A program made the position numbers and the translations under genes. Positions 445-49,400 of a stretch of 64,000 nt of DNA are shown here, piece after piece. The notes under the pieces were generated by a model. That model was not told the origin of the DNA. It made no database searches and worked only from the letters and a program-made list of their open reading frames with translations. Origin of the DNA: a phage; the sequence record PZ154897.1. One strand, written 5' to 3'. Positions within the stretch are counted from its first letter, which is position 1; every line of letters starts with the position of its first letter.

Positions 445-482
445 GTTATATAGTACCATAAAGGAACCGGGATGTAAACCAT
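445..482 (-). promoter_or_regulatory. early sigma70-type promoter (-35 GTTTAC, extended -10 TGGTACTATA) driving the lipoprotein gene
   Basis: minus-strand GTTTAC (474-479) and TGGTACTATA (449-458); member of repeated promoter cassette also at 16304, 45344, 49367 with shared upstream TTTTCACAAA. Confidence 0.55.
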
Positions 483-566
483 TTTGTGAAAAAATTTTTA
501 ATGAATTCAAAGGGCCCAGAATCATCTATTTTTCCTAAGTATAGATTTATATTACTTGTATGAAAA

Positions 567-584
567 AGGGACCCGGAGGTCCCT
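567..584 (-). terminator. stem-loop (7-bp stem, CGGA/UCCG loop) followed by U-rich tract downstream of gene 43
   Basis: agggacc-cgga-ggtccct palindrome; minus-strand UUUUCAU follows. Confidence 0.5.
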
Positions 585-596
585 AGATTTATTCTA

Positions 597-3293
597 TCAG
601 CCAAACAGGAAGTCTAACGAAGCTTTTTCCTCATAGTCCATACCTGCCGATTCACACATGCCCGCAAGCGGTTTAACAAACGATTTTTGGAACAAAGTTG
701 AGTAGTCAATCCAAGACAGTACATCAGAACGAATTTCTTTTGGAAGTTCCGTACCCGACGGCCAAGCAATGCACTTATCACCAAATGGATTTCCTTCACG
801 TAATGGAAGAACCATTACCTTATTTCCATCCAAAATTGGAGCTACACCTAAACCATTAACAGCTCGACGATAAGTTAGCACCCCACGAATGTGGAACGGG
901 CATTTAAATCCTGGCCAACCTTTATCATCATATTTCGCTATATCGTTCGCAGTTTTTACTTCAGCAATAACTTTATAGTCAAGTTGACGATATTCTTTCT
1001 CAAAGTTCTTGTAGTATTCTTGGACAGACTCTTCACCTTCCTGAAGAATACGACGAATACTTTCTTCGAGAGCTTCTTGTACTGCTTTTGGTGTTGAACT
1101 CTGCTGAGTTTCCATACCCATGATTTTTAGATGTGGTTCAGCAAATCGTTTATCTTCCATATCATAAACGTTCAGAGCATAACGCTTTTTCGCTTTCCAA
1201 AATCCACCAACACCCTTTGAACCAAGTGGAGGGCAAGAAATAGCTTCACGGTCCATATGCATCAGATGCTCGCGGTTATTCATATAATCACATAACTCAC
1301 GATATGCAACATCAATCATAGGTTCCATCTTTTTCTTACCAAACTGATTCATGAATTCAACTAAATCGTTCTGCTCTTTGAATCGGTCAAGACCAACTTT
1401 TTCAACAACTTTATCTACGCAAACATATACCGAATCAGTATCACCTGCTGCGATGAAATCTTCACCATTAGTTCCACACACTTTATTCAGATACTCATTA
1501 ATTTTACGAGCAATCCACTGAATACCGACTTGACCGAAAATTGTGATAGCAGTAGCATTTCGCAAATCATAGTAACGGAAATGAATATTACCAAGAGCAC
1601 CATAAAGACTGTTAATAAGAATTTTACGGTTCAGTTGATTTGTGTTAGCAAGTGTAGCCGCTTTTTCACATTCTTCAATCAGACTATTGAGAACGGATTC
1701 GGTGTAATTCGATAGTTCATTTAAGAAATCATCATTGAACTTAACATATCGTTCAACTTCTGGTTTAGTTGAACAAGACCCTGCGCCTTTCATAATAATC
1801 TTTTTAATAGCTTCGGCATTCATTTCTTCAGCGAACATTTTCTTTTTCCAATCTTTACGCTGGAAAAATACTTTAGCGATTTCCTTTGGAATGATACCTT
1901 CTTGATGCTTATCATACATCCATCCATTCGGAGAGCAAGAATATTCATCACTCGGTTTAGGAGCTGTTCCTGCAATATATTCATGAATTGGATGAACTTT
2001 AAACTGCCCACGAATAGTCTCAGGACTAATGTTAACCTGACGAATAATGCTAGGATACAGAGACGTCAAGTCAAAACTCATAATATATCGACGAGCAATT
2101 GGTTTAGGTTCAAACACAAATGCACCCGGAAAACTCTGTTTAACGTGCGAACCCTGTTGAGGAATAACCTTATGTTCACCTTTCAATGAGTTAAAAATAA
2201 TAGCATCCCAAGTTTTAATAGGACTCATTACACCAGAAAAAGGCATTTTAGCGTAATAAGACATACTTAAAACTAGATCGATAAACCCACGAATTTTATC
2301 AATTGCTTGAACTGATTCTACGTCAATGATGTTATAACTAATGTATCGTTGATGATTAGTCTCACGAAGTTTATTAATAGGACCATCGTACGGCAATTTA
2401 CCTTTTTTGGTTTCATGTTGAGCAACTGATTCCAAAGAGAACGATGGCAAATTAGTAAATGCGAACTTCTTGTATAAATCTAAATAATCAAGAATAGATA
2501 CGCCATCAATAGAATAAATTTCTTTGCTACCGTACATATTTTGAATTAGTTTAGATTTTACTCGACCGATTGGAGAGAAACGTTTCATACTGCGTTCGCC
2601 GAGAACCATTTTAACACGGTTCATGATATACGGAACGTCAAACCCCTCAATATTCCAACCAGTAAAAATAGCAGGTCGTTTCTGTTCCCAGAGATTGATA
2701 TATTCCATGAGCATATCACGCTCATTATCGAATGGCATATAAATTACTCGGTCAAGAATTTCTTGAGGAACTTCATCACCACCTTCACAGTCAAGCTTAG
2801 CAGCTAACTTTGCATCCCATTTTGATACTGAACCGTACATTGAATTCAACAAATCAAAGACGTAAAAACGGTCGTCAATTGAATCATAATGAGTGATAGC
2901 ATCAATTTCATATTCTGCTTTCATTGGGTCAGGAAATTTATCGCCAGTAACCTCAATGTCACAATTAGCTACACGAACAAATTTTCGGTCATAAACAATT
3001 TCTGAACCATACGTATCACTGATATAAGCGAGTTTAAAATCGTTCATACCGAGAGCTTCGAGACCGATGTCTTCCATTCGCTTCATCCAGTCTCGTGCAT
3101 CTTTCATTGATGGAAATTTTTGAGGAGCGCAATTTTTACCATAAATGTCTTTGTATTTTGACTCTTCCTTACAATGCCTAAACATAGTCGGAAGATATTC
3201 TACTTCGCGAGTACGTTCCTTTCCATTTTCATCAATATAACGTTCAACAATATTATTTCCGACTGTTTCGATAGAGATATAAAATTCTTTCAT
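597..3293 (-). CDS. 43: DNA polymerase gp43 (family B, with 3'-5' exonuclease)
   Basis: 898-aa ORF; N-terminus MKEFYISIETVGNNIVERYIDENGKERTREVEYLPTMF matches T4 gp43 from memory; size identical to T4 gp43. Confidence 0.97.
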   Translation of the reverse strand: MKEFYISIETVGNNIVERYIDENGKERTREVEYLPTMFRHCKEESKYKDIYGKNCAPQKFPSMKDARDWMKRMEDIGLEALGMNDFKLAYISDTYGSEIVYDRKFVRVANCDIEVTGDKFPDPMKAEYEIDAITHYDSIDDRFYVFDLLNSMYGSVSKWDAKLAAKLDCEGGDEVPQEILDRVIYMPFDNERDMLMEYINLWEQKRPAIFTGWNIEGFDVPYIMNRVKMVLGERSMKRFSPIGRVKSKLIQNMYGSKEIYSIDGVSILDYLDLYKKFAFTNLPSFSLESVAQHETKKGKLPYDGPINKLRETNHQRYISYNIIDVESVQAIDKIRGFIDLVLSMSYYAKMPFSGVMSPIKTWDAIIFNSLKGEHKVIPQQGSHVKQSFPGAFVFEPKPIARRYIMSFDLTSLYPSIIRQVNISPETIRGQFKVHPIHEYIAGTAPKPSDEYSCSPNGWMYDKHQEGIIPKEIAKVFFQRKDWKKKMFAEEMNAEAIKKIIMKGAGSCSTKPEVERYVKFNDDFLNELSNYTESVLNSLIEECEKAATLANTNQLNRKILINSLYGALGNIHFRYYDLRNATAITIFGQVGIQWIARKINEYLNKVCGTNGEDFIAAGDTDSVYVCVDKVVEKVGLDRFKEQNDLVEFMNQFGKKKMEPMIDVAYRELCDYMNNREHLMHMDREAISCPPLGSKGVGGFWKAKKRYALNVYDMEDKRFAEPHLKIMGMETQQSSTPKAVQEALEESIRRILQEGEESVQEYYKNFEKEYRQLDYKVIAEVKTANDIAKYDDKGWPGFKCPFHIRGVLTYRRAVNGLGVAPILDGNKVMVLPLREGNPFGDKCIAWPSGTELPKEIRSDVLSWIDYSTLFQKSFVKPLAGMCESAGMDYEEKASLDFLFG

Positions 3294-3330
3294 AGATATT
3301 CCTTAGTTTATAGCCCGAGTTATTAGGCTC
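3291..3330 (-). promoter_or_regulatory. gene 43 translational operator (RNA hairpin with AAUAACUC loop abutting the SD)
   Basis: minus-strand reads GAGCCUAAUAACUCGGGCUAUAAACUAAGGAAUAUCUAUG: 5-bp stem, 8-nt loop, SD AAGGAA, start codon; matches the known autoregulatory gp43 binding site. Confidence 0.8.
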
Positions 3331-3352
3331 TTGATATATTATACTCCAAATA

Positions 3353-3368
3353 AGGGGCCGAAGCCCCT
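3353..3368 (-). other. GGGGC-UUCG-GCCCC tetraloop hairpin (intercistronic RNA stem-loop)
   Basis: aggggc-cgaa-gcccct on plus strand = UUCG tetraloop on minus transcript. Confidence 0.5.
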
Positions 3369-3371
3369 TGC

Positions 3372-3593
3372 TTAAATTAATACCAGTTGTCGGTGAAAAA
3401 TTGTCAATCCATCTGCATTAATTGACTTAACCACTGCGGTAAAGTGTTTTTGTTCTGGGTGAACTAATTTTTGAAATTCTACCTGAAATTTTAGTTGGAG
3501 GTTTTCTGGTAAATCAAAAAGTGTTTCTGTTGCAGAAAGATTATATTTTTCTTTAAGAGACGCCATGTATTCTTGCGGAGTTATAGCAGTCAT
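3372..3593 (-). CDS. hypothetical small protein (74 aa) between regA and gene 43
   Basis: ORF 3372..3635 trimmed to internal ATG directly after regA stop (MTAITPQEYMASLKEK...). Confidence 0.45.
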   Translation of the reverse strand: MTAITPQEYMASLKEKYNLSATETLFDLPENLQLKFQVEFQKLVHPEQKHFTAVVKSINADGLTIFHRQLVLI

Positions 3594-3594
3594 A

Positions 3595-3963
3595 TTAATT
3601 ACCAATCGTATATTTAGGAACGAGTTTCCATTCATGTTTTTGTTTAAAAGAAATAACTCGGAAGTTATTAGTTAAATCTTTCATAAAAGTTCTTTGACCA
3701 GGAACGATTTCAATTAGTCCCCAATCTTCTAATAGCCATGCGATTGAATCACGACGAACTTCATCTTCTTCTGTCATTTCAACCTGGCGACCATCCATAC
3801 GAAGCATTTCTTTAAAATGAACGATATAGTATAGTCCTTTTTTCTGAAGAATATGACAGGACTGATACAGAACTTTATCTTTATTATTAGCAATTCCCAT
3901 ACGAGTCAAAGTTTCTTTTACTTTCAGAAAATCTTCAGGTTTTTTAAGAGTAATTTCAATCAT
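3595..3963 (-). CDS. regA: translational repressor RegA
   Basis: 122-aa ORF MIEITLKKPEDFLKVKETLTRMGIANNKDKVLYQSCHILQKKGLYYIVHFKEM...; size and position between 62 and 43 as in T4. Confidence 0.9.
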   Translation of the reverse strand: MIEITLKKPEDFLKVKETLTRMGIANNKDKVLYQSCHILQKKGLYYIVHFKEMLRMDGRQVEMTEEDEVRRDSIAWLLEDWGLIEIVPGQRTFMKDLTNNFRVISFKQKHEWKLVPKYTIGN

Positions 3964-6924: not shown

Positions 6925-7641
6925 ATGAATTATAAACTAATTTATGAAAAGTTAATCTCTAATGCTAAATCTCGAAAACTTGATTGCTATACTGAATCTC
7001 ATCACATTATACCACGCTGTTTAAACGGTAGTGATGATGCTTCAAACTTAGTAGATTTAACGCCAGAAGAGCACTATGTAGCTCATCAACTTTTAGTAAA
7101 AATTTATCCTTCTGAACCAAAATTAGTCTATGCTGCTAACATGATGACAGTTTCTACGAAATACGCTAAACGTAACAATAAAACTTTCGGCTGGATTCGT
7201 CGTAAACTCTGGGAAATAGAAAAGAATAAAGAGTTCTCCAAAGAGACACGAAAGAAAATGTCCGACGCAGTAGCTAATAAAGCAAGACTAACTTGTCCAC
7301 ATTGCGGTAAGTCTGGATTAAGCGGGAATATGAATCGATGGCATTTTGATAACTGCCCAAATCATCCCAATCCTAAAGTTAGACCGCCAATGTCTAAAGA
7401 ACACAGAAATAATATCTCAAACGGGCTTAAAGCAATCGTTCTTGAAGAAACATCCTGCGAATTCTGCGGAATGATAGGCAAGAAATGCGTTATCGCAGCG
7501 CATAGAAATTTCTGCAAGAAAAATCCAAATGGACGCAAGAAAACTGAAAAGACTGGTACTTGCGTCCATTGTGGTAAAGTTACCACTTTCGGAAATTTAT
7601 CAAGATGGCATAATGATAATTGTAAATATAAACCTAGCTAA
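6925..7641 (+). CDS. HNH homing endonuclease (mob-type) with three C-terminal Zn-finger repeats
   Basis: 238 aa; motif [30 protein letters not shown]; three repeats of C-x-H-C-G...W-H/N-x-D/N-N-C; opposite strand to all neighbours; paralog of 51510..52169. Confidence 0.8.
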   Translation: MNYKLIYEKLISNAKSRKLDCYTESHHIIPRCLNGSDDASNLVDLTPEEHYVAHQLLVKIYPSEPKLVYAANMMTVSTKYAKRNNKTFGWIRRKLWEIEKNKEFSKETRKKMSDAVANKARLTCPHCGKSGLSGNMNRWHFDNCPNHPNPKVRPPMSKEHRNNISNGLKAIVLEETSCEFCGMIGKKCVIAAHRNFCKKNPNGRKKTEKTGTCVHCGKVTTFGNLSRWHNDNCKYKPS

Positions 7642-16303: not shown

Positions 16304-16335
16304 TAATAATACCACAGTTTGAACTTCTTGTAAAC
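16304..16335 (-). promoter_or_regulatory. early sigma70-type promoter (repeat-cassette member)
   Basis: minus-strand GTTTAC (16330-16335), spacer, TGGTATTATTA (16304-16314); shared upstream TTTTCACAAAGTTGTTTAC. Confidence 0.5.
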
Positions 16336-17372: not shown

Positions 17373-17843
17373 TTAATCATGTTTCCACACCCCATCGGTA
17401 TTTGACCAAAGTCGCTGATTATCTGAACCTCGCCACAGCTTTTTGGTTGGAAGATTTTTCTCATACTTCCCATCAATAATAACATCAACATATTTAAGCA
17501 TTTCTAGTTGTTTAATATCTTCAAACTTGTACCCTGTCCACAACCAAATGCTTTTATTTGGATAAAGATTTTTTACAGTTTGAACAATGCAATGAACATC
17601 ATCTCGGTTATCAGGATAAAGAGGGTCACCTCCAGTTATAGTTAATCCTTCTATATAATCATTATTCAAACATTCAATTAATTGTTCTAGTGTTTCACCA
17701 GTAAATGGAACGCCATTTCTAGCATTCCATGTTGATTTATTATAACACCCTTCGCATTTATGCAAACAACCTGTAACGAAAAGAACTGTCCTGCATCCAG
17801 GACCATTAACAAAGCAGCACGGGTATATTCTGTCATAATTCAT
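17373..17843 (-). CDS. nrdG: anaerobic ribonucleotide reductase activating protein NrdG (radical SAM)
   Basis: 156 aa from MNYDRIYPCCFVNGPGCRTVLFVTGCLHKCEGCYNK; Cys cluster CxxxCxxC; start ATG overlaps upstream stop (ATGA). Confidence 0.9.
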   Translation of the reverse strand: MNYDRIYPCCFVNGPGCRTVLFVTGCLHKCEGCYNKSTWNARNGVPFTGETLEQLIECLNNDYIEGLTITGGDPLYPDNRDDVHCIVQTVKNLYPNKSIWLWTGYKFEDIKQLEMLKYVDVIIDGKYEKNLPTKKLWRGSDNQRLWSNTDGVWKHD

Positions 17844-18670
17844 AATAATATCCAATTTTTCCAAGCTTCATCAGTAGAATTACAGCGTTTTAGTATAAGA
17901 TGTCTAGAAACTTTTATGGCATTTGAGCACTTTTTAATTGAATCATATTTAATACCGTCAACTGAAACGGTTTTGCTAGTTGGAGAAATTTTTCCATACA
18001 TTGGATTTTTTGAACCAACTTGAAGTCCTTTTAAAGCTTTTGAAAGCTTTTGTCTAGATTCCAATGACATGGGAGAATTCTTTTTACCTTCAATAATTCG
18101 CTTGCGATGAAGTTCGCGTTCTTCTTCACTCAAAGAATTGTAATATTTTTTAACACCGTTTGATATAGATAATTTATCTTTCTCAGACCGCTCTCCAGCT
18201 AATTTACTTCTAACATCTTTTCGCTTCATAGCTATGCTTACGGCTTTATTTAAATTTGCTTGATGCTCTGGCGTACGTTTATATTTCTTTAAAGCACGTG
18301 AAATAGCTATTTTAGTTTCTTCTGTTCTCTTTTTACCTTTATTTGCTAAACTATTTTTGCGGCGATGTTCAAGTGTCTGTTCATAGGCAGTTCCACCTTT
18401 TCCACCAGGTTTAATATTATATGTATTTTCTTTTAGACAATACTCTTCGGTTACAAGTTCAGCTTCTTTATCATACATTTGTTTTTCATTATCAAAAACA
18501 TGTAAAATTTCTTTATTAAAATTTTTTCTACCATATTTTAATAAAGCGGCACGAATCAATGTTCCTGACCCCATATAACCGTCATTTATGTTATCGGTGC
18601 TATGCGCACCGATATATTCCTTTGAATTAATTATATTTGTTATTTTATAAATTATATAATACCTATGCAT
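17840..18670 (-). CDS. GIY-YIG homing endonuclease (seg-like) with NUMOD-type DNA-binding repeats
   Basis: 276 aa; N-terminus YYIIYKITNIINSKEYIGAHST...YNIKPGG; about half the N-terminal residues match the segB-like ORF at 46478; overlaps nrdD stop and nrdG start. Confidence 0.8.
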   Translation of the reverse strand: MHRYYIIYKITNIINSKEYIGAHSTDNINDGYMGSGTLIRAALLKYGRKNFNKEILHVFDNEKQMYDKEAELVTEEYCLKENTYNIKPGGKGGTAYEQTLEHRRKNSLANKGKKRTEETKIAISRALKKYKRTPEHQANLNKAVSIAMKRKDVRSKLAGERSEKDKLSISNGVKKYYNSLSEEERELHRKRIIEGKKNSPMSLESRQKLSKALKGLQVGSKNPMYGKISPTSKTVSVDGIKYDSIKKCSNAIKVSRHLILKRCNSTDEAWKNWILL

Positions 18671-20480
18671 GTTTTACTCGTTTTACCATTTCTTTCATTT
18701 TACCTAAATTCCATGGAACAACGCTAGGAGTTCCAAGATATCCGCATGTTCTTCTTATTGTGTTCATCTTTTTAGGATCAGTTTCTCCACAAATAGAACA
18801 AACAAATCCGTTTTCAGTAGGAGTCATTTCATGGGTACTTCCGCATGTAAAACATTTATCTACCGGCATGTTAACACCAAAATAATCTAAATGTTGTGCA
18901 GCATAATCCCATATGGCCTCAAGGCCTTTTAAGTTATTTTTCATATCAGGAAGTTCAACATAAGAAATGTGACCACCTGTCGCAATGAAATGATATGGCG
19001 CTTCACGAGAAATCTTTTCAAACGGAGTAATATTTTCTTCTACTGAAACGTGGAAACTGTTAGTGTACCAGCCTTTATCAGTAACATCCTTTACACTTCC
19101 ATATTTTTCAGTATCAAGTTTACAGAAGCGATAGCACAGGTTTTCAGCAGGTGTAGAATACAAGCTAAAAGCAAAACCGGTTCTTTCAGTCCACTGCTTA
19201 AGACGAGTATTCATTTTAGTTAAAATTTCTTGTCCAATATCACGACCAACAAGAATATTCAATTCGTGAATACCAATGTATCCTAGGGACACTGAACTTC
19301 TACCGTTTTTAAATAACTCAATTATATCATCATCGGGTTTAAGACGAACCCCGAATGCACCTTCTTGGTAAAGAATAGGAGCAACAGTAGCTTTAACTCC
19401 TTTTAAGGAACTAATTCTACACATCAATGCTTCAAAACATAAATCAATTCGTTCATTGAACAATTCGGCAAATTTCTGTTCATTGAACTGTGTTCCAATA
19501 TAAGAATCTAGCGCAATGCGAGGAAGATTCAGTGTTACAACGCCAAGATTATTACGTCCATCAAGAATTTCATTACCAGTCGAATCTTTCCATACGCTCA
19601 AGAAACTGCGGCAACCCATTGGAGAAACAGGAATAGATGAACCTGTGATAGCTTTATTGTTCTTAGCCGAAATGATGTCAGGATACATTCTTTTGCTTGC
19701 ACACTCTAAAGCAAGCTGTTTAATATCATAGTTCGGATCGTCTTTATAAAGATTAACACCTTCTTCAACGAACATAACAAGTTTAGGGAAAATAGGAGTT
19801 ATCCCGTCACGACCAAGACCTTTAATACGATTTTTCAGAATTGCTTTCTGAATCATTCGTTCAGTCCAGTCAGTTCCCGTACCAAATGTAATTGTTACAA
19901 AAGGCGTTTGTCCGTTTGAACTAAAGAGAGTATTTACTTCATATTCATAAGCTTGGAACGCATCGTATACATCTTTTTCTGTTTTAGATTGGGCATAATT
20001 CAATGCATCTGCGATTTGCCATTTTTCCGCGTCCTCAATATGTTTCGCATAGGTGCGTTTAACATAAGGAGAAAGTACTTTATCTACATTCGCAAAAGTC
20101 GTTCCACCATATTGATGGGAAGCAACCTGTGCAGTAATTTGTGCCATAATTGCAGTAGCAACACCGATTGATTTAGGAGTTTCAATCTGTGCATTACCGA
20201 GCTTAAACCCGTTCTCAAGCATTCCTTTTAAATCTACTAAACAACAATTAGTAAAAGGCAATGATATACTGTAATCTAAATCATGAAAATGAATTAATCC
20301 GACGTTATGAGCATTTACAATATGGCTTGGAAGAATACTACAAGCGATATGTTTAGAAACAATACCAGCCATTAAATCTCTTTTTGTTGGAAAGACACGA
20401 GAATCTTTGTTGGCATTTTCGGTATTTAATTCTTTATCTTTATTTGAAATAAAATTTAAAACATCTTTCTCTAAAGACAT
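18663..20480 (-). CDS. nrdD: anaerobic ribonucleoside-triphosphate reductase NrdD (glycyl-radical enzyme), intron-less
   Basis: continuous 605-aa ORF; C-terminal Zn-ribbon CFTCGSTHEMTPTENGFVCSICG and glycyl-radical region RTCGYLGTP. Confidence 0.95.
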   Translation of the reverse strand: MSLEKDVLNFISNKDKELNTENANKDSRVFPTKRDLMAGIVSKHIACSILPSHIVNAHNVGLIHFHDLDYSISLPFTNCCLVDLKGMLENGFKLGNAQIETPKSIGVATAIMAQITAQVASHQYGGTTFANVDKVLSPYVKRTYAKHIEDAEKWQIADALNYAQSKTEKDVYDAFQAYEYEVNTLFSSNGQTPFVTITFGTGTDWTERMIQKAILKNRIKGLGRDGITPIFPKLVMFVEEGVNLYKDDPNYDIKQLALECASKRMYPDIISAKNNKAITGSSIPVSPMGCRSFLSVWKDSTGNEILDGRNNLGVVTLNLPRIALDSYIGTQFNEQKFAELFNERIDLCFEALMCRISSLKGVKATVAPILYQEGAFGVRLKPDDDIIELFKNGRSSVSLGYIGIHELNILVGRDIGQEILTKMNTRLKQWTERTGFAFSLYSTPAENLCYRFCKLDTEKYGSVKDVTDKGWYTNSFHVSVEENITPFEKISREAPYHFIATGGHISYVELPDMKNNLKGLEAIWDYAAQHLDYFGVNMPVDKCFTCGSTHEMTPTENGFVCSICGETDPKKMNTIRRTCGYLGTPSVVPWNLGKMKEMVKRVKHA

Positions 20481-21292
20481 AATTCTAATTTATCCTTTTG
20501 AAATTCTTCGTCTAAATATGGGTTCCAACCCATTTTAAACCTTTTGATGAAATTATCAATTCTAAATTTCGGTAAGTTTAAATCCGCAAAAATAGATGAT
20601 TTACTTTTAAAATATGGACCTAAATAATCATATAAAATTTCTGCGTATTTTAACCATAATATACAAGTACCAGATTTAATTGCTCTCGGAGTTTTCCAAG
20701 GTTTTACACCATACATCGGATTTCCACTTCCTTTATGCCTGATAGAAGATGAAATTCCAATTTTAATTTTAGCTTCCTTTGTGTGCGAAAATCCATGATG
20801 TGGATTTTCTTTCCAGTATTTTTTAGAAGCTTCTGATATTTTCTTTCTGGCTAAATTAGTATGATGCTTTCCATAAAATCCATGATTTTTACCTTTATTA
20901 CGATTTCTTTTAATCATGGTTATTGATTGCTTTTCTCTAGTTTCTTTAGAAGGAGAAATACCATACGTTGTAAATTGACCGTCAGCATATGCTAAATTGA
21001 AATACTCTTTATTCCATATATCTTTTTCTATATTCTTTTGAAATTCAGCTTCAATGCTAGTTATTTGTTCATCTCCGACTAATTGAAAATATAATATTTC
21101 AACTTTCGGCGTTTCTTTCAACAGGGCTTTTTGAAATTCGGAAGATGACGAAGACGAATAATAAAATTTACCATTTTTATCAATAATATTCGTTCCGTCA
21201 AAAGTGCAATTGGTTTTACTTCCAATATAATAATATGGCGGGGTTTTAGCATTAATTCTACTAATAAATGATAGTTTATATACTACATTCAT
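20471..21292 (-). CDS. GIY-YIG-like homing endonuclease (degenerate motif) with NUMOD3 repeats
   Basis: 273 aa; VYKLSFISRINAKTPPYYYIGSKTN; repeats NHGFYGKHHTNLARKKISEASKK / HHGFSHTKEAKIKIGISS / GSGNPMYGVKPWK; very AT-rich; overlaps nrdD start by 10 nt. Confidence 0.6.
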   Translation of the reverse strand: MNVVYKLSFISRINAKTPPYYYIGSKTNCTFDGTNIIDKNGKFYYSSSSSSEFQKALLKETPKVEILYFQLVGDEQITSIEAEFQKNIEKDIWNKEYFNLAYADGQFTTYGISPSKETREKQSITMIKRNRNKGKNHGFYGKHHTNLARKKISEASKKYWKENPHHGFSHTKEAKIKIGISSSIRHKGSGNPMYGVKPWKTPRAIKSGTCILWLKYAEILYDYLGPYFKSKSSIFADLNLPKFRIDNFIKRFKMGWNPYLDEEFQKDKLELCL

Positions 21293-22743: not shown

Positions 22744-22953
22744 TTAATTTCGCAATTTATTAAGTTCTTCATAATCAATCCAGGATTCTAGTCCTGATGG
22801 CAAATCAGATTCAATTTCCCAAAGAAGCTCTTCAATTTTCTGAAGACGATCTAATTCTTCGGCTGGAATAGTAACCATTGACGGAGTTCTTGATACACTA
22901 ATATCGTAAATCATATTTACCCCAGTTTGACCATGCAATCGCCATATTTCCAT
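22744..22953 (-). CDS. hypothetical small protein
   Basis: 69-aa ORF. Confidence 0.45.
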   Translation of the reverse strand: MEIWRLHGQTGVNMIYDISVSRTPSMVTIPAEELDRLQKIEELLWEIESDLPSGLESWIDYEELNKLRN

Positions 22954-25947: not shown

Positions 25948-25978
25948 CATTATACCACATCCTTGTGGCAAAGTAAAC
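25948..25978 (-). promoter_or_regulatory. early sigma70-type promoter inside the B/C junction
   Basis: minus-strand GTTTAC (25973-25978) and TGTGGTATAAT (25948-25958). Confidence 0.45.
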
Positions 25979-28375: not shown

Positions 28376-28903
28376 TTATGCGAGTACCGTCTTTAACCGT
28401 TCTTCAAACTTCCGAAGAGTATTTTGGCGTTCAGCTCTTTGCTTTTTGTAAGTTTCAATACGCTCTGAAATGAGAGTGTATCGTTCATTTACTGATTCTT
28501 TCATAAAATCAGGAATTTCACGAGAAGCTTTAATCTCATCAAATTTATCAATAACAGCTTGCTCTTCAGCAATTAAGTTATCATACATTAAAATATCTTT
28601 CTTGATGAACTCAATATCTTCTTGAGTTACACGAGATAATTTAGATGCTTTATCCTTTTTGTACTGTTCGTTAGTATCACGAGACCAGTGTAATGTACGA
28701 TTTTTATTCGTATTCTTGTAAATTTCTACAATACCAATCTCATCAATAATAACGATCCAATTCCAACGGGATTTGTAAATTTGTCCTCCATCAACAGTGA
28801 TTTCACCTCCGATTGAGATGTCGTTAAAGAACTTACTCTGTACTTCAGATTTAAATTTACCATCGTTGTAATTTACTAAGTTGAAAATATCTTTAGCGTT
28901 CAT
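28376..28903 (-). CDS. hypothetical protein with C-terminal coiled coil
   Basis: 175-aa ORF preceded by early-promoter cassette. Confidence 0.5.
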   Translation of the reverse strand: MNAKDIFNLVNYNDGKFKSEVQSKFFNDISIGGEITVDGGQIYKSRWNWIVIIDEIGIVEIYKNTNKNRTLHWSRDTNEQYKKDKASKLSRVTQEDIEFIKKDILMYDNLIAEEQAVIDKFDEIKASREIPDFMKESVNERYTLISERIETYKKQRAERQNTLRKFEERLKTVLA

Positions 28904-28929: not shown

Positions 28930-28961
28930 GTATAGTACCACAGAGGAACAGTCTTGTAAAC
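28930..28961 (-). promoter_or_regulatory. early sigma70-type promoter (repeat-cassette member)
   Basis: minus-strand GTTTAC (28956-28961) and TGGTACTATAC (28930-28940). Confidence 0.5.
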
Positions 28962-30336: not shown

Positions 30337-30398
30337 TTTATTCTCCAAATCCGTATCAGTTGATAGTTGTATAGTACCATAAGCCCGAAGGCTCCCTA

Positions 30399-31412
30399 TC
30401 ATTTATAATAACTTCGATGGTTTTCAAGATAGACCTTCTCAAGGAAGTCATCCCAGAAACTCATGTCTACTGTTTTAGGCATACCGTTCTTAGAAGCTTC
30501 AGTAGATGCTGCTTCTACTTGATCGACCACATCTTCCAAAAACTCTTGAACGGTTTTAAATGGATGTTTACCCAACTTCACGTCGAGAATAAATGGAGCG
30601 TCTTGAAGTGGATAAACCAAGTCACCAGTTTTGTAAATTTCCAATAGTTGAAGTCCACCACGACAAGCATGGCTCAGAGCTTTCCAGTCGATGCCTTCAT
30701 TGGCTTCGGCCTTACGAGCGCGTTCACCATATTCAGCATTTAATTTGTTCAGTGACTGCTTAAGCTCAATAAGAGAAAGCGTTGTCTGATATTTACGACC
30801 CAATACAGTATAGAACGTTTGTGGGCCTGTTTTCTCATGATCATGGAACACCCATTCACAGAATTCGTTTTTTGGAAGACGATGCTTAATATCTTCAACT
30901 TTAGTACGACGCTGCTTAATGGAACCGTCTTCTTGGTAATCAACCCATTGCTCAGGGATTTGATTAACTACTTTCAATACATCACGTAATGCAGCCAAAC
31001 GAGAACCCTTGACACCGTATTTAGAAGCTTGCTTACGGACATATCCTAAATAGGATTTCATGTTAGTCGTATAAAAACGAGAACGGTTGTCTTGAATAAA
31101 CTTCCACACATCAGGCAAATCAGATTTAACCACTAGTTCAGGTGGAGTGTGAAGCATATCCAATGCTACAGTTTCACCATCTGCTGCTAATTTAAAGAAA
31201 TACTTAAGACTATACAATTCGTGGTCAATATCATCTTTAGTGTTTTTAGATGATGTGTTGTTGGTGTTTTTACTCATGTGCTCTTTGACGTTTCCGATAA
31301 GAATATCACGAGCAGGAGGAACAAAAATTTCTTTAAAATCTACATCAGATTCTGGAGTAGAAGTTCCATAAAGATGACTACCAAAATAGCTTTTCATTAC
31401 TGTTTTCATCAT
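30399..31412 (-). CDS. nucleotidyltransferase-fold protein (Pol-beta/CD-NTase-like N-terminus + helical C-domain)
   Basis: 337 aa; GSHLYGTSTPESDVDF fits hG[GS]-x(9-13)-[DE]h[DE]h; third acidic residue in TVALDMLH. Confidence 0.6.
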   Translation of the reverse strand: MMKTVMKSYFGSHLYGTSTPESDVDFKEIFVPPARDILIGNVKEHMSKNTNNTSSKNTKDDIDHELYSLKYFFKLAADGETVALDMLHTPPELVVKSDLPDVWKFIQDNRSRFYTTNMKSYLGYVRKQASKYGVKGSRLAALRDVLKVVNQIPEQWVDYQEDGSIKQRRTKVEDIKHRLPKNEFCEWVFHDHEKTGPQTFYTVLGRKYQTTLSLIELKQSLNKLNAEYGERARKAEANEGIDWKALSHACRGGLQLLEIYKTGDLVYPLQDAPFILDVKLGKHPFKTVQEFLEDVVDQVEAASTEASKNGMPKTVDMSFWDDFLEKVYLENHRSYYK

Positions 31413-33530: not shown

Positions 33531-33560
33531 ACTATACCATAACCTTGCCAACTTGTAAAC
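33531..33560 (-). promoter_or_regulatory. early sigma70-type promoter
   Basis: minus-strand GTTTAC (33555-33560) and TGGTATAGT (33531-33539). Confidence 0.45.
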
Positions 33561-34126: not shown

Positions 34127-34359
34127 TATTCCACCACATATGAAAGAGAGAATATTGCACACGCCATGTGAGTTGCAACTTCATCACACATATCATAACG
34201 TTTCTTAAGAAGTTCTACAAGTTCTTCACTAGTAACTTCATCCATGCCGACGAAAAAATCACCATTAATGATGACGTAGATATTTCCTTCTTGATTGAGT
34301 GCTTCAATTTTCATGATGTTCTCCTCTTTATCCGATGGTTGTATAGTATCACAGCTCAA
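34126..34359 (-). CDS. hypothetical small acidic protein
   Basis: 77-aa ORF; start uncertain. Confidence 0.4.
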
Positions 34360-34372
34360 ATGGAAAGTAAAC
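34340..34372 (-). promoter_or_regulatory. early sigma70-type promoter
   Basis: minus-strand GTTTAC (34367-34372) and TGATACTATAC (34340-34350). Confidence 0.45.
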
Positions 34373-34387
34373 CGGTAAAATGAAAAA

Positions 34388-34405
34388 AGTCTCCCGAAGG
34401 AGACT
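34388..34405 (-). terminator. AGUCUCC-UUCG-GGAGACU hairpin followed by U-run
   Basis: 7-bp palindrome with cgaa loop; minus-strand UUUUUCAUUUU follows; downstream of rI.-1. Confidence 0.55.
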
Positions 34406-38046: not shown

Positions 38047-38508
38047 TCATTGAGTTTTAATTACTGCTTTAGAAGCCTTTCCTGGTAAACGACGACTGTT
38101 GATAATTGCCATCCTACATTGAAGTGACGGGTCTTTGAACTTCGCATTAGGTTTACAAACTGTAAATCCAAGCCAAAGATTTCCATCAGTGATTTCTAAA
38201 CGCCCAGGACGATATTCAACCCCATCAATAAAATCCTCGTCAATGTCAGGACGCGGAGGCATACTCAGGAATTCATTAACTTCTAAAACATGGTCTTTTA
38301 TTTTATGGAATAATTCAAAAACATATGTCTCATCAATCTCCCGTTGAATTGCACGATCAAGAAGATGTTGAGAATATTTTAGATGAAACGATGAGACCCC
38401 TGCTGCTTTTGATGCCTCACGAATCTCATTGTTAATTTGACGAAACTCCGACTCAAAGTGACGACGAAGCTTATTTCGACGGATAAAAACTTCTGTATTG
38501 ATAGTCAT
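38047..38508 (-). CDS. regB: site-specific RNA endonuclease RegB
   Basis: 153 aa; size and position (upstream of denV, downstream of early promoter) as T4 regB; identity from synteny and partial recall. Confidence 0.7.
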   Translation of the reverse strand: MTINTEVFIRRNKLRRHFESEFRQINNEIREASKAAGVSSFHLKYSQHLLDRAIQREIDETYVFELFHKIKDHVLEVNEFLSMPPRPDIDEDFIDGVEYRPGRLEITDGNLWLGFTVCKPNAKFKDPSLQCRMAIINSRRLPGKASKAVIKTQ

Positions 38509-38533: not shown

Positions 38534-38563
38534 AAATTATACCACAGTCAAGAGGAAAAGTAA
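38534..38563 (-). promoter_or_regulatory. early sigma70-type promoter upstream of regB
   Basis: minus-strand GTTTAC (38558-38563) and TGTGGTATAAT (38534-38544). Confidence 0.5.
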
Positions 38564-38568
38564 ACAAG

Positions 38569-40708: not shown

Positions 40709-41125
40709 TTAAATGTAAATATTTTTGCCGTAATACTTGTACCAGTGTGGCTTCATTAAAATTTTTTCATCGAGTCGTTGTTGACTCAACCTAATAGCTG
40801 ATTTGCATGGATTATAATCATTTTTCCATTCTACTGGAATATCACTGATGTCAGGAACTTCAGTATCTTTTATACTAAACCCGCGTTTTAAGCATTCCGT
40901 TATAATGTCTGATTGACGCTTTCGCAAAAATTCTAACTTATCGTAAAAGAACGTAACATGACCAGAACCTAAAATAAACTCGGAAGATATTTTAAAATCT
41001 TTAACTCGTTTACCATTTGCCACGTGTTTACGAATTATACCAAAAACACGTGGCAATTCACGGTATTCTGCGATTAAATGCTGATCAGCAAGTTCAGATA
41101 CTAAAGTCAAATTAATACGAGTCAT
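40709..41125 (-). CDS. denV: endonuclease V (pyrimidine-dimer DNA glycosylase) DenV
   Basis: 138 aa [29 protein letters not shown]...WYKYYGK matches T4 endo V from memory. Confidence 0.95.
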
Positions 41126-41148
41126 TTTATCCCTCCAAGTAACTGTGA

Positions 41149-41181
41149 ATATACTATCACAGTTACTTGGAGAAAGTAAAC
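41149..41181 (-). promoter_or_regulatory. early sigma70-type promoter upstream of denV
   Basis: minus-strand GTTTAC (41176-41181) and TGATAGTATAT (41149-41159). Confidence 0.5.
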
Positions 41182-41185: not shown

Positions 41186-41716
<531 letters not shown>

Positions 41717-43996: not shown

Positions 43997-44590
43997 TTAT
44001 TTCAGAGAATTAATGTATTCCTGAACATCGGCAGAGGTAGTTTCAACCCCGGAAATATTACCGTTAAAGGTTTCAACTCGAGCAAGAGTATCTTCAATAT
44101 CAACCTTAGTTAGCGCTGCGATTTCAACTACATCATCGGCAGTACTAATTCCAAGGGCATTTGCTGCACGAGTTTCACGGATATATTCCAATTTAACTGC
44201 AAGTTCTTGACGAGCATCATCTAATTCAACTACTTTCTTGGCGATTTCAATTCGCATTTCAGCATAACCATCAGCTTTAGTAGTCAACTGCTCAGCTGTT
44301 CGACGATATAGTAAACCGAGCTTAGCATGCATTGTTACATCTTGACCTTCGGAAAGAAGTTTGCGAATTTCACGCTCTTTTGATTCGGCTTGTCGATTCT
44401 TTTCGATAACAAGTTCACGAATACGTTTTTCTTCATTAATAGATTTAACAGAAGCAGTTTTTAGATCTTTAATTTTATCAAGCAGTTTTGCTGCTGCAGC
44501 AGTATACTGTTCTTCAACAGATAGATTTTTAGCCATAGCAGAACCAAGTTTAGTGCGAATAAACTCAACAATTTTCTTCAGTGTGTTCAT
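43997..44590 (-). CDS. coiled-coil protein resembling PspA/IM30 (phage-shock protein A family)
   Basis: 197 aa, mostly helical; local similarity to E. coli PspA recalled from memory (LDDARQEL vs VDDTLARM, IRETRA vs [15 protein letters not shown] vs ARFESFERRI). Confidence 0.4.
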
Positions 44591-44616: not shown

Positions 44617-44647
44617 GATAATATCACGTTTTTAATAGATTGTAAAC
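44617..44647 (-). promoter_or_regulatory. early sigma70-type promoter upstream of the PspA-like gene
   Basis: minus-strand GTTTAC (44642-44647) and TGATATTATC (44617-44626). Confidence 0.4.
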
Positions 44648-44983
44648 TTATTCTTCGTCTAGCTCGTCGATAAAGACGTTGATGGACTCGACAATGGCAT
44701 CGTTAATAGCCAGTAAAATAAAATCGTCGTCAGTACCTTTATAAGATTCTGAAGCATTGATATATGCTTGATTGGCGAGTTCCCAAGCCTTTTTAAAATA
44801 AGGAGCTTCATCATCAGGACAAATATCCCGCACACCTTCAAAGATACGATTGGCATAATCTAACACCCATTGTACAGGTATGTTTTGAGAACGTTCATTA
44901 AACTCTTTAAAGTCCTTAGATTCAAAAAGCTCTTCAGGGTAATCATTTCTATTGCAAAAATCTTTGCTAAAGTTACGTTTCAT
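44648..44983 (-). CDS. hypothetical acidic protein
   Basis: 111-aa ORF. Confidence 0.45.
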   Translation of the reverse strand: MKRNFSKDFCNRNDYPEELFESKDFKEFNERSQNIPVQWVLDYANRIFEGVRDICPDDEAPYFKKAWELANQAYINASESYKGTDDDFILLAINDAIVESINVFIDELDEE

Positions 44984-45038
44984 AATATTTTCCTCAAATT
45001 ATAGGCTCATAATATCTCAATCATGAGCCTATGTAAAC

Positions 45039-45314
45039 TTATTTCATATTATTAAAATATTCTTCTGCGATTTCGTCGTTATCATGGTAAACTTTAGAAG
45101 ACAGTTTAACATAACCTTCAGCAGTGAACATGTTAATCACAACCTTTACAGTATACCACTGACCGTCTTCATTACCCATTACTGCGTAAGTTTCAAACAT
45201 CGGATGGTCAGGACCGATAACTTTAATATCATTCACTGTACGACCGAAATCTTCTGAAACACATTTCATAAAGAAGTTGAACAGTTCGCCGTAATTATCC
45301 ATTTCATTCTCCAA
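45039..45314 (-). CDS. hypothetical small protein
   Basis: 91-aa ORF downstream of promoter cassette; start may be Met5. Confidence 0.45.
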   Translation of the reverse strand: MENEMDNYGELFNFFMKCVSEDFGRTVNDIKVIGPDHPMFETYAVMGNEDGQWYTVKVVINMFTAEGYVKLSSKVYHDNDEIAEEYFNNMK

Positions 45315-45343: not shown

Positions 45344-45375
45344 GTATAGTACCATGGAAAAACGGGGATGTAAAC
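45344..45375 (-). promoter_or_regulatory. early sigma70-type promoter (repeat-cassette member)
   Basis: minus-strand GTTTAC (45370-45375) and TGGTACTATAC (45344-45354); upstream TTTTCACAAAACTGTTTAC. Confidence 0.5.
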
Positions 45376-45506
45376 AGTTTTGTGAAAAATTTTTTTAAAA
45401 AGTTTTAGGGAATTCTAGGGTGGGAAGGGGCAATTAAAGGATAGGATAATATATTATAAAGGGTAGAAACTAAATGATGCCTAGAGAGGTCCAGAAAGGT
45501 CTAGAT

Positions 45507-45539
45507 ACCAAAAAGCCCCAACCTTTCGGTCGGGGCTAA
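45507..45539. repeat. 33-bp direct repeat, copy 1 (terminator module)
   Basis: accaaaaagccccaacctttcggtcggggctaa identical to 46050..46082. Confidence 0.8.
45514..45537 (-). terminator. rho-independent terminator downstream of the IP-like gene
   Basis: agcccc(g/a)acc stem with tttc/GAAA loop; minus-strand UUUUUGG follows. Confidence 0.6.
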
Positions 45540-45544: not shown

Positions 45545-46003
45545 TTATTTGATTTGTTTAGCAGACCAAATGCGGTCTTTAATAATTTTTTGGATGTCTT
45601 CAACATACTCTAGGTCATGAGCATGTGGATTATCTTTAAAACTATAAGCTCGCGCAAGTTTCTGGCCTTCGGTCTTAATTACCAAAAGTTCTTTAAGAAT
45701 TGCTTCATACCTAGAAATAATTCCTTTAGCAATATTTTTTTCTTGTGCTGCTTTAGGGTCAGCCTTAGGAGCAGGTTTACCAGAAGGTTTTTCGAAAGCC
45801 GCACCAGTAGCAACCAGGCTTTTCCAGGCGGTGGTAACATAGTTACCCACAAAGCCTTCAGCTCTCATATCGTCGTAGAACTTGTACCGAGATTCGTCAG
45901 AAGCATCTTTATAAGAATATTTACCAGCTTTAATAGCAGCAGTTGCTACAGCGCGAACATCTGAAGCGGATGCTTCATTTAAAAATTGAGCATATGATTT
46001 CAT
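45545..46003 (-). CDS. internal-protein-like ORF with capsid-targeting-sequence-like leader (MKSYAQFLNEA)
   Basis: 152 aa; N-terminal decapeptide resembles the T4 IP leader MKTYQEFIAE; Ala/Lys-rich; late promoter upstream; flanked by 33-bp repeats. Confidence 0.5.
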   Translation of the reverse strand: MKSYAQFLNEASASDVRAVATAAIKAGKYSYKDASDESRYKFYDDMRAEGFVGNYVTTAWKSLVATGAAFEKPSGKPAPKADPKAAQEKNIAKGIISRYEAILKELLVIKTEGQKLARAYSFKDNPHAHDLEYVEDIQKIIKDRIWSAKQIK

Positions 46004-46042: not shown

Positions 46043-46050
46043 TATTTATA
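46043..46050 (-). promoter_or_regulatory. late promoter TATAAATA
   Basis: tatttata on plus strand ~40 nt upstream of the 46003 start. Confidence 0.5.
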
Positions 46051-46082
46051 CCAAAAAGCCCCAACCTTTCGGTCGGGGCTAA
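46050..46082. repeat. 33-bp direct repeat, copy 2 (terminator module)
   Basis: identical to 45507..45539. Confidence 0.8.
46057..46080 (-). terminator. rho-independent terminator at the 3' end of the tRNA/stable-RNA transcription unit
   Basis: same hairpin as 45514..45537 followed by minus-strand U-run. Confidence 0.6.
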
Positions 46083-46477: not shown

Positions 46478-47143
46478 TTAAAATTTCATTTTTCGACCTT
46501 TAAACCATCCTTCTGGAATTGGGTCAGTTTTCTTAATACGTTTAGAAACTTTTTCATCTAATGAATGAATCCACATCATACCAAATTGGGAATTCTTTTC
46601 GCCCTGTTGGTGTTTATTTCTGGCGTGAGATTCTTTCATTTTATTAATAGTTTCAGGAGTATGGGTCTTACCCAAGAAAGATTTAATATTTAAAAATTTC
46701 TCTCTATACTTAGGATTATCCCAAAGCTGTTTAAACCTTTCTGAACCCATTTTACGATATTTTTCTTTAAGGTCTGGGTCGTTCTCAAATCTGGTTTTAA
46801 AAGCAGCAGCCCCTTTTAAGGAAGCTTCTTTCTTTTTATCCAAATATTCTTTAGTGTTTAAATGGTCCCAACCACCTTCACCACCTAATTTCAAATTATA
46901 AACATCAGGGCGCTTTAAAAACTCTTCAGTCACAATATTCTTTTCTGACTCAAACATAGAGGTTTTATCGTCAAAGAACTCTAATATTTCTTTAGAGAAA
47001 TTTTCTATACCATACTTGTCTTGGGCTCTTTTTAATAATTTACCAGAACCCATATATCCATCATCTAAATTTTCGGTAGAATGAGCGCCTATATAGATTT
47101 TATTATTAATTTTATTTGTTATTTTATAAGTGTAATGGAACAT
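46478..47143 (-). CDS. segB: GIY-YIG homing endonuclease in the tRNA cluster (segB-like)
   Basis: 221 aa; YTYKITNKINNKIYIGAHST...YNLKLGGEGG; paralog of 17840..18670; sits between tRNA subclusters as T4 segB does. Confidence 0.8.
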   Translation of the reverse strand: MFHYTYKITNKINNKIYIGAHSTENLDDGYMGSGKLLKRAQDKYGIENFSKEILEFFDDKTSMFESEKNIVTEEFLKRPDVYNLKLGGEGGWDHLNTKEYLDKKKEASLKGAAAFKTRFENDPDLKEKYRKMGSERFKQLWDNPKYREKFLNIKSFLGKTHTPETINKMKESHARNKHQQGEKNSQFGMMWIHSLDEKVSKRIKKTDPIPEGWFKGRKMKF

Positions 47144-47429: not shown

Positions 47430-47431
47430 AG

Positions 47432-47517: not shown

Positions 47518-47589
<72 letters not shown>

Positions 47590-47595
47590 AAACTT

Positions 47596-47682: not shown

Positions 47683-47683
47683 G

Positions 47684-47755: not shown

Positions 47756-47853
47756 AATTATTAACAAAGGCTCTCTAACAAGAACCCTTGATGATAGAGG
47801 GTATTAATCAGTGCGATATGAGTTAATAATAACAAATAATTCTTAAAGCATAT

Positions 47854-48141: not shown

Positions 48142-48143
48142 TA

Positions 48144-48527: not shown

Positions 48528-48528
48528 T

Positions 48529-48714
48529 CTATTCACCTTTAGAAATTTTATCCATAACAATAGCGATTAAACCAATTAAAAATGCTACTACAAGTGAAAA
48601 CACATTTTCTGCTGTAGTTAATAATCCACATATAAATCCAACAAACATTGAAAAACTAAAAGCAGAAGCAGAAATTGCAATAGCAACATTTCGAATTAAT
48701 TCACATCGTTTCAT
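48529..48714 (-). CDS. small two-TM membrane protein
   Basis: 61 aa; VAIAISASAFSFSMFVGFICGLL and FSLVVAFLIGLIAIV. Confidence 0.45.
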   Translation of the reverse strand: MKRCELIRNVAIAISASAFSFSMFVGFICGLLTTAENVFSLVVAFLIGLIAIVMDKISKGE

Positions 48715-48737
48715 TTTATTCTCCTCAGTAATTGATA

Positions 48738-48772
48738 GGGTAATAGTATCACACTACTACCCAGAAGTAAAC
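48738..48772 (-). promoter_or_regulatory. early-type promoter, cassette copy 1 of 3 (TGATACTATTACC)
   Basis: minus-strand GTTTAC (48767-48772) and TGATACTATTACCC (48738-48751). Confidence 0.5.
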
Positions 48773-48775
48773 AAC

Positions 48776-49000
48776 TTATTCCGCTCCAGCAGCTTTCAAA
48801 AGCTTTTTAAGATTAACAGTGCCACGAGCAGAAAACGTGACTTTACCATCCTTTTCACTAATAGAGCCAGTTAACTTAGAAAGTTTATCGCTAGGAATTT
48901 TTTTAAAATCACTTAATGTACCATCAAAAGTTTTCGTAACAATTGGTAGTTCATCTTCATGTCTTTTAGCTTCATTGATAAATTCTTGATATGTTTTCAT
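48776..49000 (-). CDS. internal-protein-like ORF with capsid-targeting leader MKTYQEFINEA
   Basis: 74 aa from Met5 of the ORF-track product; leader matches the T4 IP consensus MKTYQEFIAE. Confidence 0.55.
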   Translation of the reverse strand: MKTYQEFINEAKRHEDELPIVTKTFDGTLSDFKKIPSDKLSKLTGSISEKDGKVTFSARGTVNLKKLLKAAGAE

Positions 49001-49030
49001 TTTGATTTCCATTTAGTTTTGTTTTGATAG

Positions 49031-49064
49031 GGTAATAGTATCACAACTAAACCACCGTGTAAAC
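49031..49064 (-). promoter_or_regulatory. early-type promoter, cassette copy 2 of 3
   Basis: minus-strand GTTTAC (49059-49064) and TGATACTATTACC (49031-49043). Confidence 0.5.
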
Positions 49065-49067
49065 AAT

Positions 49068-49340
49068 TTATTTTAAATAAATTGCATATTTTTTATAACC
49101 AGCCGTCTCGTGACGCAGACCTTTTTCATTAGCAAAGCGTTCAATATTATTAATTTGATTCTGATCAAGTTCTGAAATATCAAATACAAAAAAGTTTCGT
49201 TTATTTCCTAACGTTACATGATTCGTCAAATCAATGTTATAAAGATGATTTATATTATCAATCATAGTCTTAACAGATTTGCTAATTTTTACTTCTTCAT
49301 TAAGAGCAGATTCAACGATAAACTCTTTGAAAGTTTTCAT
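49068..49340 (-). CDS. internal-protein-like ORF with capsid-targeting leader MKTFKEFIVE
   Basis: 90-aa ORF; N-terminus fits the IP leader pattern. Confidence 0.5.
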   Translation of the reverse strand: MKTFKEFIVESALNEEVKISKSVKTMIDNINHLYNIDLTNHVTLGNKRNFFVFDISELDQNQINNIERFANEKGLRHETAGYKKYAIYLK

Positions 49341-49366
49341 TTTATTTTCCTAATTAATTTTGATGA

Positions 49367-49400
49367 GGTAATAGTATCACAACTAAAACCCCGTGTAAAC
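49367..49400 (-). promoter_or_regulatory. early-type promoter, cassette copy 3 of 3
   Basis: minus-strand GTTTAC (49395-49400) and TGATACTATTACC (49367-49379); shared upstream TTTTCACAAAGTTGTTTAC. Confidence 0.5.

Follow-up and report, generated by a model that had tools for sequence, protein, structure and literature searches.

Recurrent T4-type early promoter cassettes in a Tequatrovirus genome segment, and their partial coincidence with recombination boundaries

The phage genome segment analysed here, 64,000 nucleotides from sequence record PZ154897.1 (hereafter "the window"), carries on its minus strand a recurrent cassette, with 14 intact copies and one truncated copy (30337-30382). Judged by orthology and consensus, these repeats are T4-type early promoters. 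Very probably, they depend on sigma-70, and the recombination associated with some of them is a by-product of promoter similarity that concerns the variable part of the genome and not every copy.

Each unit consists of an A/T-rich upstream element, a -35 box (GTTTAC), a 17-nt spacer ending with TGn, a -10 box (TA(c/t)(t/a)AT) and a start-site box. As in T4, the host RNA polymerase is expected to fire the cassettes right after infection, so that the minus strand would give rise to many short early transcription units that overlap. The copies are near-identical over 50-95 nt, which also allows homologous recombination of the phage to cross over between them; at four loci (see below) it has demonstrably done so, with exchange, insertion or loss of gene cassettes. 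Catalogues of T4 early promoters date back to the late 1980s, and the promoter interpretation is already textbook knowledge; its value here lies in the annotation, as the sites define the early transcription units of the window phage.

The window and its relatives

The window is collinear with positions 26598-88455 of T4 and represents the segment from gene 43 to gene 8 of a Tequatrovirus (T4-like coliphage). Its minus strand harbors gene 43, followed by the nrdC, tk, regB, denV, e, tRNA and ipI regions. Its plus strand harbors, from 53.5 kb, the baseplate genes 53 to 8 (late block, 53.5-64 kb). Identity across gene 43-8 is 91-97% between the window and T4 as well as many Tequatrovirus genomes, among them phages of Escherichia, Shigella, Yersinia and Salmonella. 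Phages T4, FJ1, T2, PST, and RB32 were retained as relatives for the mapping of breakpoints. Scans of IMG/VR with gp57B and NrdC.10 as queries returned mostly other genera and 3-4 close relatives, and were left out of this mapping. Annotated promoter features were sought in the T4 records NC_000866 and AF158101, and none was found there.

Motif search and site tally

The weight matrix used to scan the window is composed of two blocks, with 16-18 nt between hexamers, and was scored by leave-one-out. It retrieves 14 full sites scoring 24-37 bits (16.6-34.9 bits by leave-one-out), all of them on the minus strand and below 49.4 kb, in the early-gene region; no site is found on the plus strand or in the late-gene region. 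The start-site box TAYWAT-N5-YMTCAA, located over the predicted start, occurs seven times versus 0.5 expected. When up to three mismatches to GTTTAC-N15-TGRTACTAT are allowed, 21 matches are found versus 4.9 expected.

Could these repeats be chance sigma-70-like matches in AT-rich DNA? A generic sigma-70 -35/-10 scan speaks for it, finding 74 matches in the window versus 77.1 in shuffled sequence; loose promoter-like matches are therefore uninformative in an AT-rich phage genome. The specific motif, in contrast, is found seven times without mismatch, each time on the minus strand, versus 0.00 expected from 100 dinucleotide shuffles of the window, and the 14 sites of at least 24 bits compare with 0.05 matches of at least 18 bits per 128 kb of first-order Markov random sequence. 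Furthermore, the sites occupy a single strand, are intergenic, and are kept at matching positions in T4. Motif counts, weight-matrix scan, and conservation in T4 refute the chance reading, to which we leave a vanishingly small probability.

The sequence-only reading, made before these analyses, had listed ten sites. All are real and on the minus strand, 2-5 nt away from where it had placed them, and the count over the whole window is far above chance. Four more full sites (25949, 33531, 44618, and 45009) had been left unlisted. Two of its measurements need correction. GTTTAC and TG are 15 nt apart and not 17 nt, the latter being the distance between the hexamers TTTACa and TAcTAT; and conservation extends beyond ~55 bp, since cassette pairs align over 53-93 nt with 60-96% identity, from the upstream element to the ATG, and form two or three subfamilies. 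The upstream box that it had included in the module, TTTCACAAA, is present at four sites only (474, 16330, 45370, and 49395) and not at the remaining ones, the consensus directly 5' of GTTTAC being A-rich. The three tandem copies announced in front of consecutive small genes are confirmed, the sites 49371-49400, 49035-49064, and 48743-48772 each preceding one open reading frame (ORF).

Promoter anatomy and identity

The -35 box GTTTAC is present in 14/14 intact sites, and TGn precedes the -10 box in 13 of the 14. Hexamers are spaced by 17 nt at 13 sites and by 18 nt at 41151. At 10/15 sites the upstream gene ends so close to the -35 box (stop codon 0-13 nt before it) that the upstream element extends into its 3' end. 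The next ATG is found on the early strand 23-43 nt past the -10 box, behind a GGAG-type ribosome-binding site. Cassettes occupy nearly the whole of the short gap that extends from the stop codon to the next ribosome-binding site and ATG. The sites are as follows, the downstream genes being named by collinearity with T4.

450..479, minus strand: imm.1 promoter core; GTTTAC at 474-479, -10 TACTAT at 450-455; precedes ORF 35..427; TTTCACAAA box; T4 27051-27080.
16306..16335, minus strand: 55.6 promoter core; ATG 16275; TTTCACAAA box; T4 41677-41706.
25949..25978, minus strand: nrdC.4 promoter core; ATG ~25920; T4 50944-50973; one of the four sites unlisted by the sequence-only reading.
28932..28961, minus strand: nrdC.8 promoter core; gene 28376..28903; spacer CTGTTCCTCTG pairs with leader CGGAGGAACAG, which holds the ribosome-binding site; T4 53914-53943.
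30337..30382, minus strand: truncated cassette between nrdC.11 (stop 30399) and nrdC.10 (ATG 30336).
33531..33560, minus strand: mobD.2 promoter core; ATG ~33502; 13-bp inverted repeat between spacer and leader; T4 57961-57990; previously unlisted.
34343-34372, minus strand: mobD.5 promoter core, with an upstream hairpin and T-run at 34388-34405; the terminator-like hairpin is AGTCTCC-TTCG-GGAGACT; sole intact promoter-plus-stem-loop unit in the window; T4 58751-58780.
38536..38565, minus strand: regB promoter core; gene 38047..38508; spacer-leader pairing of 18 bp, ribosome-binding site included; T4 62768-62797.
41151..41181, minus strand: denV promoter core; gene 40709..41125; spacer longer by one base; 19-bp inverted repeat around the -10 box, covering the GGAG ribosome-binding site; T4 66469-66498, located there before ipIII.
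44618..44647, minus strand: e.6 promoter core; gene 43997..44590; left edge of the e.7 cassette; previously unlisted.
45009..45038, minus strand: e.7 promoter core without TGn; gene 44648..44983; right edge of the e.7 cassette; previously unlisted.
45346..45375, minus strand: e.8 promoter core; ATG 45302; TTTCACAAA box; T4 70667-70696.
48743..48772, minus strand: trna.4 promoter core; gene 48529..48714; third of the three tandem copies.
49035..49064, minus strand: promoter core before the internal virion protein gene 48776..49012 (78 aa, phrog_8765); second tandem copy.
49371..49400, minus strand: promoter core before the internal head protein gene 49068..49340 (90 aa, phrog_7673); first tandem copy, mosaic.

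In the published consensus of T4 early promoters (Nolan 2006, PMC1524935), GTTTAC occupies -36 to -31, the region from -40 to -44 is A-rich, and a GT-rich segment precedes -12. T4 early promoters have been classified as a combined UP/-35/TGn/-10 type with further consensus positions (Hinton 2010, PMC2988021), and the T4 regB promoter is a typical early promoter (PMC3014915). A consensus has also been published for the cassettes of PST and T4, TTTACW-N17-TAYWAT (PMC4122927), to which those of the window fit. The motif recurs in T4 at 15 corresponding positions (27080, 41706, 50973, 53943, 55384, 57990, 58780, 62797, 65413, 66498, 69967, 70359, 70696, 73572, and 73939). These matching positions, together with a layout at every site that is that of the published consensus, identify the repeats as T4-type early promoters, as the sequence-only reading had proposed.

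The window cassettes share with the T4 early promoters (Pe) the -35 GTTTAC, the TGn-extended -10 box, the A-rich upstream element, and the conserved start-site positions, and they precede the same early genes at matching positions, so that no essential difference separates the two sets. Three local differences are found. In the window phage, the nrdC.10 copy is crippled by a 58-nt deletion, the ipI locus has three promoter copies where T4 has two, and the T4 denV promoter copy is missing, since the phage has neither ipII nor ipIII and its denV stands behind the ipIII-type promoter.

Cassettes and homology breakpoints

Chained BLAST alignments of the window with the five relatives reveal 59 distinct homology breakpoints in the early region, 9 of which lie within 60 nt of a promoter core, versus ~2.5 expected under uniform placement. 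Since whole-gene indels end at gene junctions anyway, a null based on gene junctions is fairer. With all breakpoints, they are found at 8/15 promoter junctions versus 37/87 other junctions (p=0.31). Without the 19 breakpoints associated with homing endonucleases, the counts become 8/15 versus 24/87 (p=0.049). With the same exclusion, which is post hoc, promoter junctions stand out between 30 and 53 kb (8/11 versus 13/43, p=0.013) and not between 1 and 30 kb (0/4 versus 11/43, p=1.0).

Breakpoints located inside cassettes are found at 30346-30382, 41126-41136, 44609, 44979-45039, 48752-48779, 49069, and 49319. The e.7 cassette, between the cores 44618 and 45009, is replaced in relatives. On the strength of these alignments, the view of the repeats as recombination-prone boundaries is true at four loci (two internal-protein loci, e.7, and nrdC.11/nrdC.10) and is not general. 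The sequence-only reading had made it a property of the repeats as such, and had suggested comparing cassette boundaries with breakpoints among related phages; this comparison supports it locally, between 30 and 53 kb, and not in the first 30 kb, the enrichment being weak overall. The swappable accessory cassettes to be flagged are thus those of the two internal proteins, of e.7, and of the nrdC.10/11 slot. The junction-matched test also calls for caution, as most indels in the region fall elsewhere than at promoters, roughly a third of all indels there being linked to homing endonucleases.

A model of gene shuffling by early promoter plus stem-loop (PeSL) cassettes has been published for phages RB49/phi1 (Arbiol 2010, PMC2839356) and PST/T4 (PMC4122927), and a gene-shuffling role of such cassettes is therefore not a new hypothesis. 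The idea of early promoters as recombination linkers appeared for the internal-protein loci in 1994 (Repoila) and was widened to PeSLs in 2010 (Arbiol) and 2014 (Comeau). Inverse PCR on infected cells has been used there for circular DNA resulting from PeSL recombination (PMC2839356). PeSL copies are expected to resemble each other over about 100 bp; those of the window align over 53-93 nt. Transposed to the window, the repeats would be PeSL-type mobile regulatory elements, their main evolutionary role being gene shuffling through inter-copy recombination and circular intermediates. This is quite possible, although we lean against it. Besides the published model, the enrichment between 30 and 53 kb, the inserts of T2 and FJ1 located exactly at the nrdC.10 cassette, and the mosaic cassettes of the ipI locus (see below) argue in its favor. 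However, the upstream stem-loop that defines PeSL accompanies only 1/14 intact cassettes (34343). Among the 15 sites, the stem-loop terminator is intact at 34343-34405 and left as a remnant at 30337-30382, the other 13 displaying weak hairpins within coding sequence. Moreover, none of the four promoter junctions of the 1-30 kb region has a breakpoint, 50/59 breakpoints are more than 60 nt away from any promoter core, 19/59 are tied to homing endonuclease genes, and the enrichment is not significant when all breakpoints are kept. Conservation of the core needs no explanation beyond promoter function.

The window cassettes have several features in common with the PeSL cassettes of RB49/phi1, PST/T4, and nt-1/KVP40: both are strong early promoters repeated in variable regions, both show indel or replacement ends inside cassettes as well as degraded half copies, and both obey TTTACW-N17-TAYWAT. 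The window differs by its scarce stem-loops and by its copies in the conserved 1-30 kb, which are devoid of breakpoints among the five relatives.

Several points weigh against an account of the repeats as early promoters that recombine as a by-product of their similarity. The e.7 site (45009) lacks TGn, and the truncated copy at 30337-30382 lacks the -35 box and may be inactive or weak. Promoter activity in the window phage is read from orthology and consensus. Finally, the exclusion of the breakpoints associated with homing endonucleases was decided post hoc, and the counts drawn from five relatives are small.

Homing-endonuclease-type genes are found in the window at 6925-7641 (plus strand), 17840-18670, 20471-21292, 46478-47143, and 51510-52184 (the last four on the minus strand), with NUMOD3 and GIY-YIG matches, one being mobB-like according to the RB32 annotation. 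These genes account for about a third of the breakpoints with relatives. The nrdD gene of the window phage has no intron, whereas T4 and PST carry I-TevII.

The truncated copy between nrdC.11 and nrdC.10

In T4, PST, and RB32, the nrdC.11/nrdC.10 junction harbors a full unit made of a hairpin (GGGAGCC-TTCG-GGCTCCC) followed by a T-run, a TTTCACAAA box, GTTTAC, the spacer, TATGGTACTAT, and the leader. Junction alignment reveals a 58-nt deletion in the window relative to these three phages, which removes the 3' half of the terminator stem, the T-run, the upstream element, the -35 box, and most of the spacer. What is retained in 30337-30382 comprises TGG (30377-30379), the -10 TACTAT (30371-30376), the leader, and the ribosome-binding site, next to the ATG at 30336. 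The deletion joins GGGCT directly onto TTATGGTACTAT, with a GCT microhomology at its ends (window 30380-30402), and its left end falls within the GGGC motif of the terminator hairpin. GGGC-type motifs at T4 deletion end points go back to Mosig, as noted in Arbiol 2010 (PMC2839356). The same 58-nt deletion is found in an IMG/VR genome (L043) and in vB_Eco-B1.1 (ON871820.1), most relatives keeping the full unit.

The truncated cassette shares 96% identity over 53 nt with the imm.1 cassette (409-461), located ~30 kb away (repeat family D3). The sequence-only reading had described a copy devoid of its -35 box and had taken it for an absorbed part of the 5' region of the ATPase gene. Such a truncated copy does exist, but it is intergenic, with the ribosome-binding site and the ATG at 30336 downstream. 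The deletion creates an in-frame upstream ATG at 30402, and an ORF caller would therefore report 344 aa and not the conserved 322-aa NrdC.10 homologue; the longer ORF is an artefact of the deletion. An N-terminal extension of NrdC.10 from 30402 was rejected: the ribosome-binding site and ATG at 30336 are conserved, the segment has the 96% identity with the imm.1 cassette, the Met at 30336 is where family matches start, and the genes annotated in relatives measure 969 nt. We accordingly correct the start of the nrdC.10 homologue to 30336. A MotA-dependent middle promoter was also rejected for the truncated copy, no TGCTT box being present around -30 in the junction sequence examined.

The same position is a site of insertion in other phages. 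FJ1 and T2 carry inserts of 828 nt and 672 nt, respectively, exactly at the nrdC.10 cassette, and that of T2 is flanked by two stem-loop-plus-promoter copies.

Internal-protein loci and mosaic cassettes

Mosaic cassettes were sought by comparing 84 cassettes from the six genomes. The ipI locus shows each of the four possible combinations of two spacer types with two leader types, which places crossovers within the shared GTGATACTATTAYC core (-10 box). The first internal-protein cassette of the window (49371) is one of these spacer/leader recombinants. In the imm.1 cassette of the window, an e.8-like spacer is joined to an nrdC.10-like leader; the spacer found there in T4 and RB32 is another one, and T2 has at this position a complete nrdC.8-type cassette before a different gene.

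The ORFs 49068..49340 and 48776..49012 match internal head/virion protein families and start with MKTFKEFIVE and MKTYQEFI, respectively. They display the cassette type in which an early promoter is followed by a small internal-protein gene with an N-terminal capsid-targeting peptide. In the window, ipII and ipIII (T4 65359-66454) are absent and denV directly follows the ipIII-type promoter, with a leader that differs from that of T4 denV (40709-41181). T2 and RB32 carry Ip4 instead of denV in the window's 40709-41181 slot. The RB32 annotation notes direct repeats flanking Ip7/Ip9 and ORF133c.

Internal-protein (IP) loci were described by Repoila 1994, as summarised in Arbiol 2010 (PMC2839356), as small variable genes for injected head proteins; according to the same summary, each gene stands behind a T4 early promoter with weak AT-rich stem-loops. 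The mosaic patterns of the window match this picture as well as the PeSL model. As in other T-even IP loci, different IP genes fill the same slots in different phages. The window differs in its content, with two IP genes at ipI, none at ipII/ipIII, and one IP-like gene at 45545..46003.

An alternative origin of the tandem copies at 48.7-49.4 kb is the duplication and divergence of promoter-plus-internal-protein units, without cassette exchange. The two genes indeed share promoter, leader, and the first ~10 codons (repeat family D7), and both match internal-protein families. Their protein bodies, however, belong to different families (phrog_7673 versus phrog_8765), the slots hold ipI in T4, IpV/IpVI in PST, and Ip5/Ip9/Ip7 in RB32, and the four spacer/leader combinations point to exchange over divergence in place. 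We therefore consider tandem duplication unlikely.

The IP-like ORF 45545..46003 (minus strand) encodes 152 aa and is absent from T4, T2, and PST; its start, MKSYAQFLNEA, resembles an internal-protein targeting peptide. It is flanked by identical (100%) 35-nt terminator-like hairpins at 45505-45539 and 46048-46082, each made of AGCCCCGACC-GAAA-GGTTGGGGCT and a T-run. In the RB32 annotation, a similar gene is flanked by a 34-bp imperfect direct repeat.

Spacer-leader hairpins

At five sites (28932, 33531, 38536, 41151, and 45009), about a third of the cassettes, the spacer (-30 to -13) can pair over 9-19 bp with the leader of its own cassette, of which it is the reverse complement, and the -10 box and start site would therefore lie in the loop of a 9-19 bp hairpin. 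Such pairing is also found in the counterparts of T4, FJ1, T2, PST, and RB32. In the window, the mean duplex energy is -12.5 kcal/mol for a spacer and its own leader, versus -8.0 for a spacer and other leaders, and 0/10,000 permutations reached the observed mean. Among the 68 distinct cassettes of the six genomes, 37% fall within the lowest 5% of unrelated cross-pairs. The strongest pairings are those of 41151 (19 bp), 38536/regB (18 bp), and 28932 (14 bp), whose 3' arm takes in the ribosome-binding site, unlike that of 33531 and 45009.

Arm sequences vary between cassette types and match within each cassette. Some substitutions among relatives preserve pairing only as G-U, which suggests a structure formed by RNA. 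Cassettes that are recombinant in the -10 core lose their pairing, as exemplified by 49371 (-6.5 versus -15.7 in its T4 counterpart).

T4 late promoters of e, soc, 49, and I-TevI lie inside hairpins that gate translation. The sites 41151, 28932, and 38536 share the same predicted geometry; the internal promoter is late in those four genes, whereas here it is early and its own spacer provides the 5' arm. We tentatively suggest that such cassettes may be self-contained translation switches that extend hairpin gating from late to early promoters, a proposal that we regard as rather doubtful. In such a switch, RNA initiated at the cassette's own promoter would lack the 5' arm and be translatable and open to RegB cleavage at GGAG, and in RNA reading through from upstream, folding would conceal the ribosome-binding site. 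No description of hairpin gating at early promoters was found in the literature searched, which excluded the older T4 literature.

Other genes in the window

Gene 3372-3635 (minus strand, 87 aa) lies between gene 43 and regA and has a match to the family of RB18 ORF43.1. It is absent from T4 and T2 and present in FJ1, PST, and RB32, and no promoter cassette is found at either of its boundaries. In the slot of T4 49.3, ORF 22744-22953 (minus strand, 69 aa) shows a weak match, below threshold, to the T7 gp5.9 RecBCD-inhibitor family (E=5e-4, 20.3 bits for a cut-off of 24.5).

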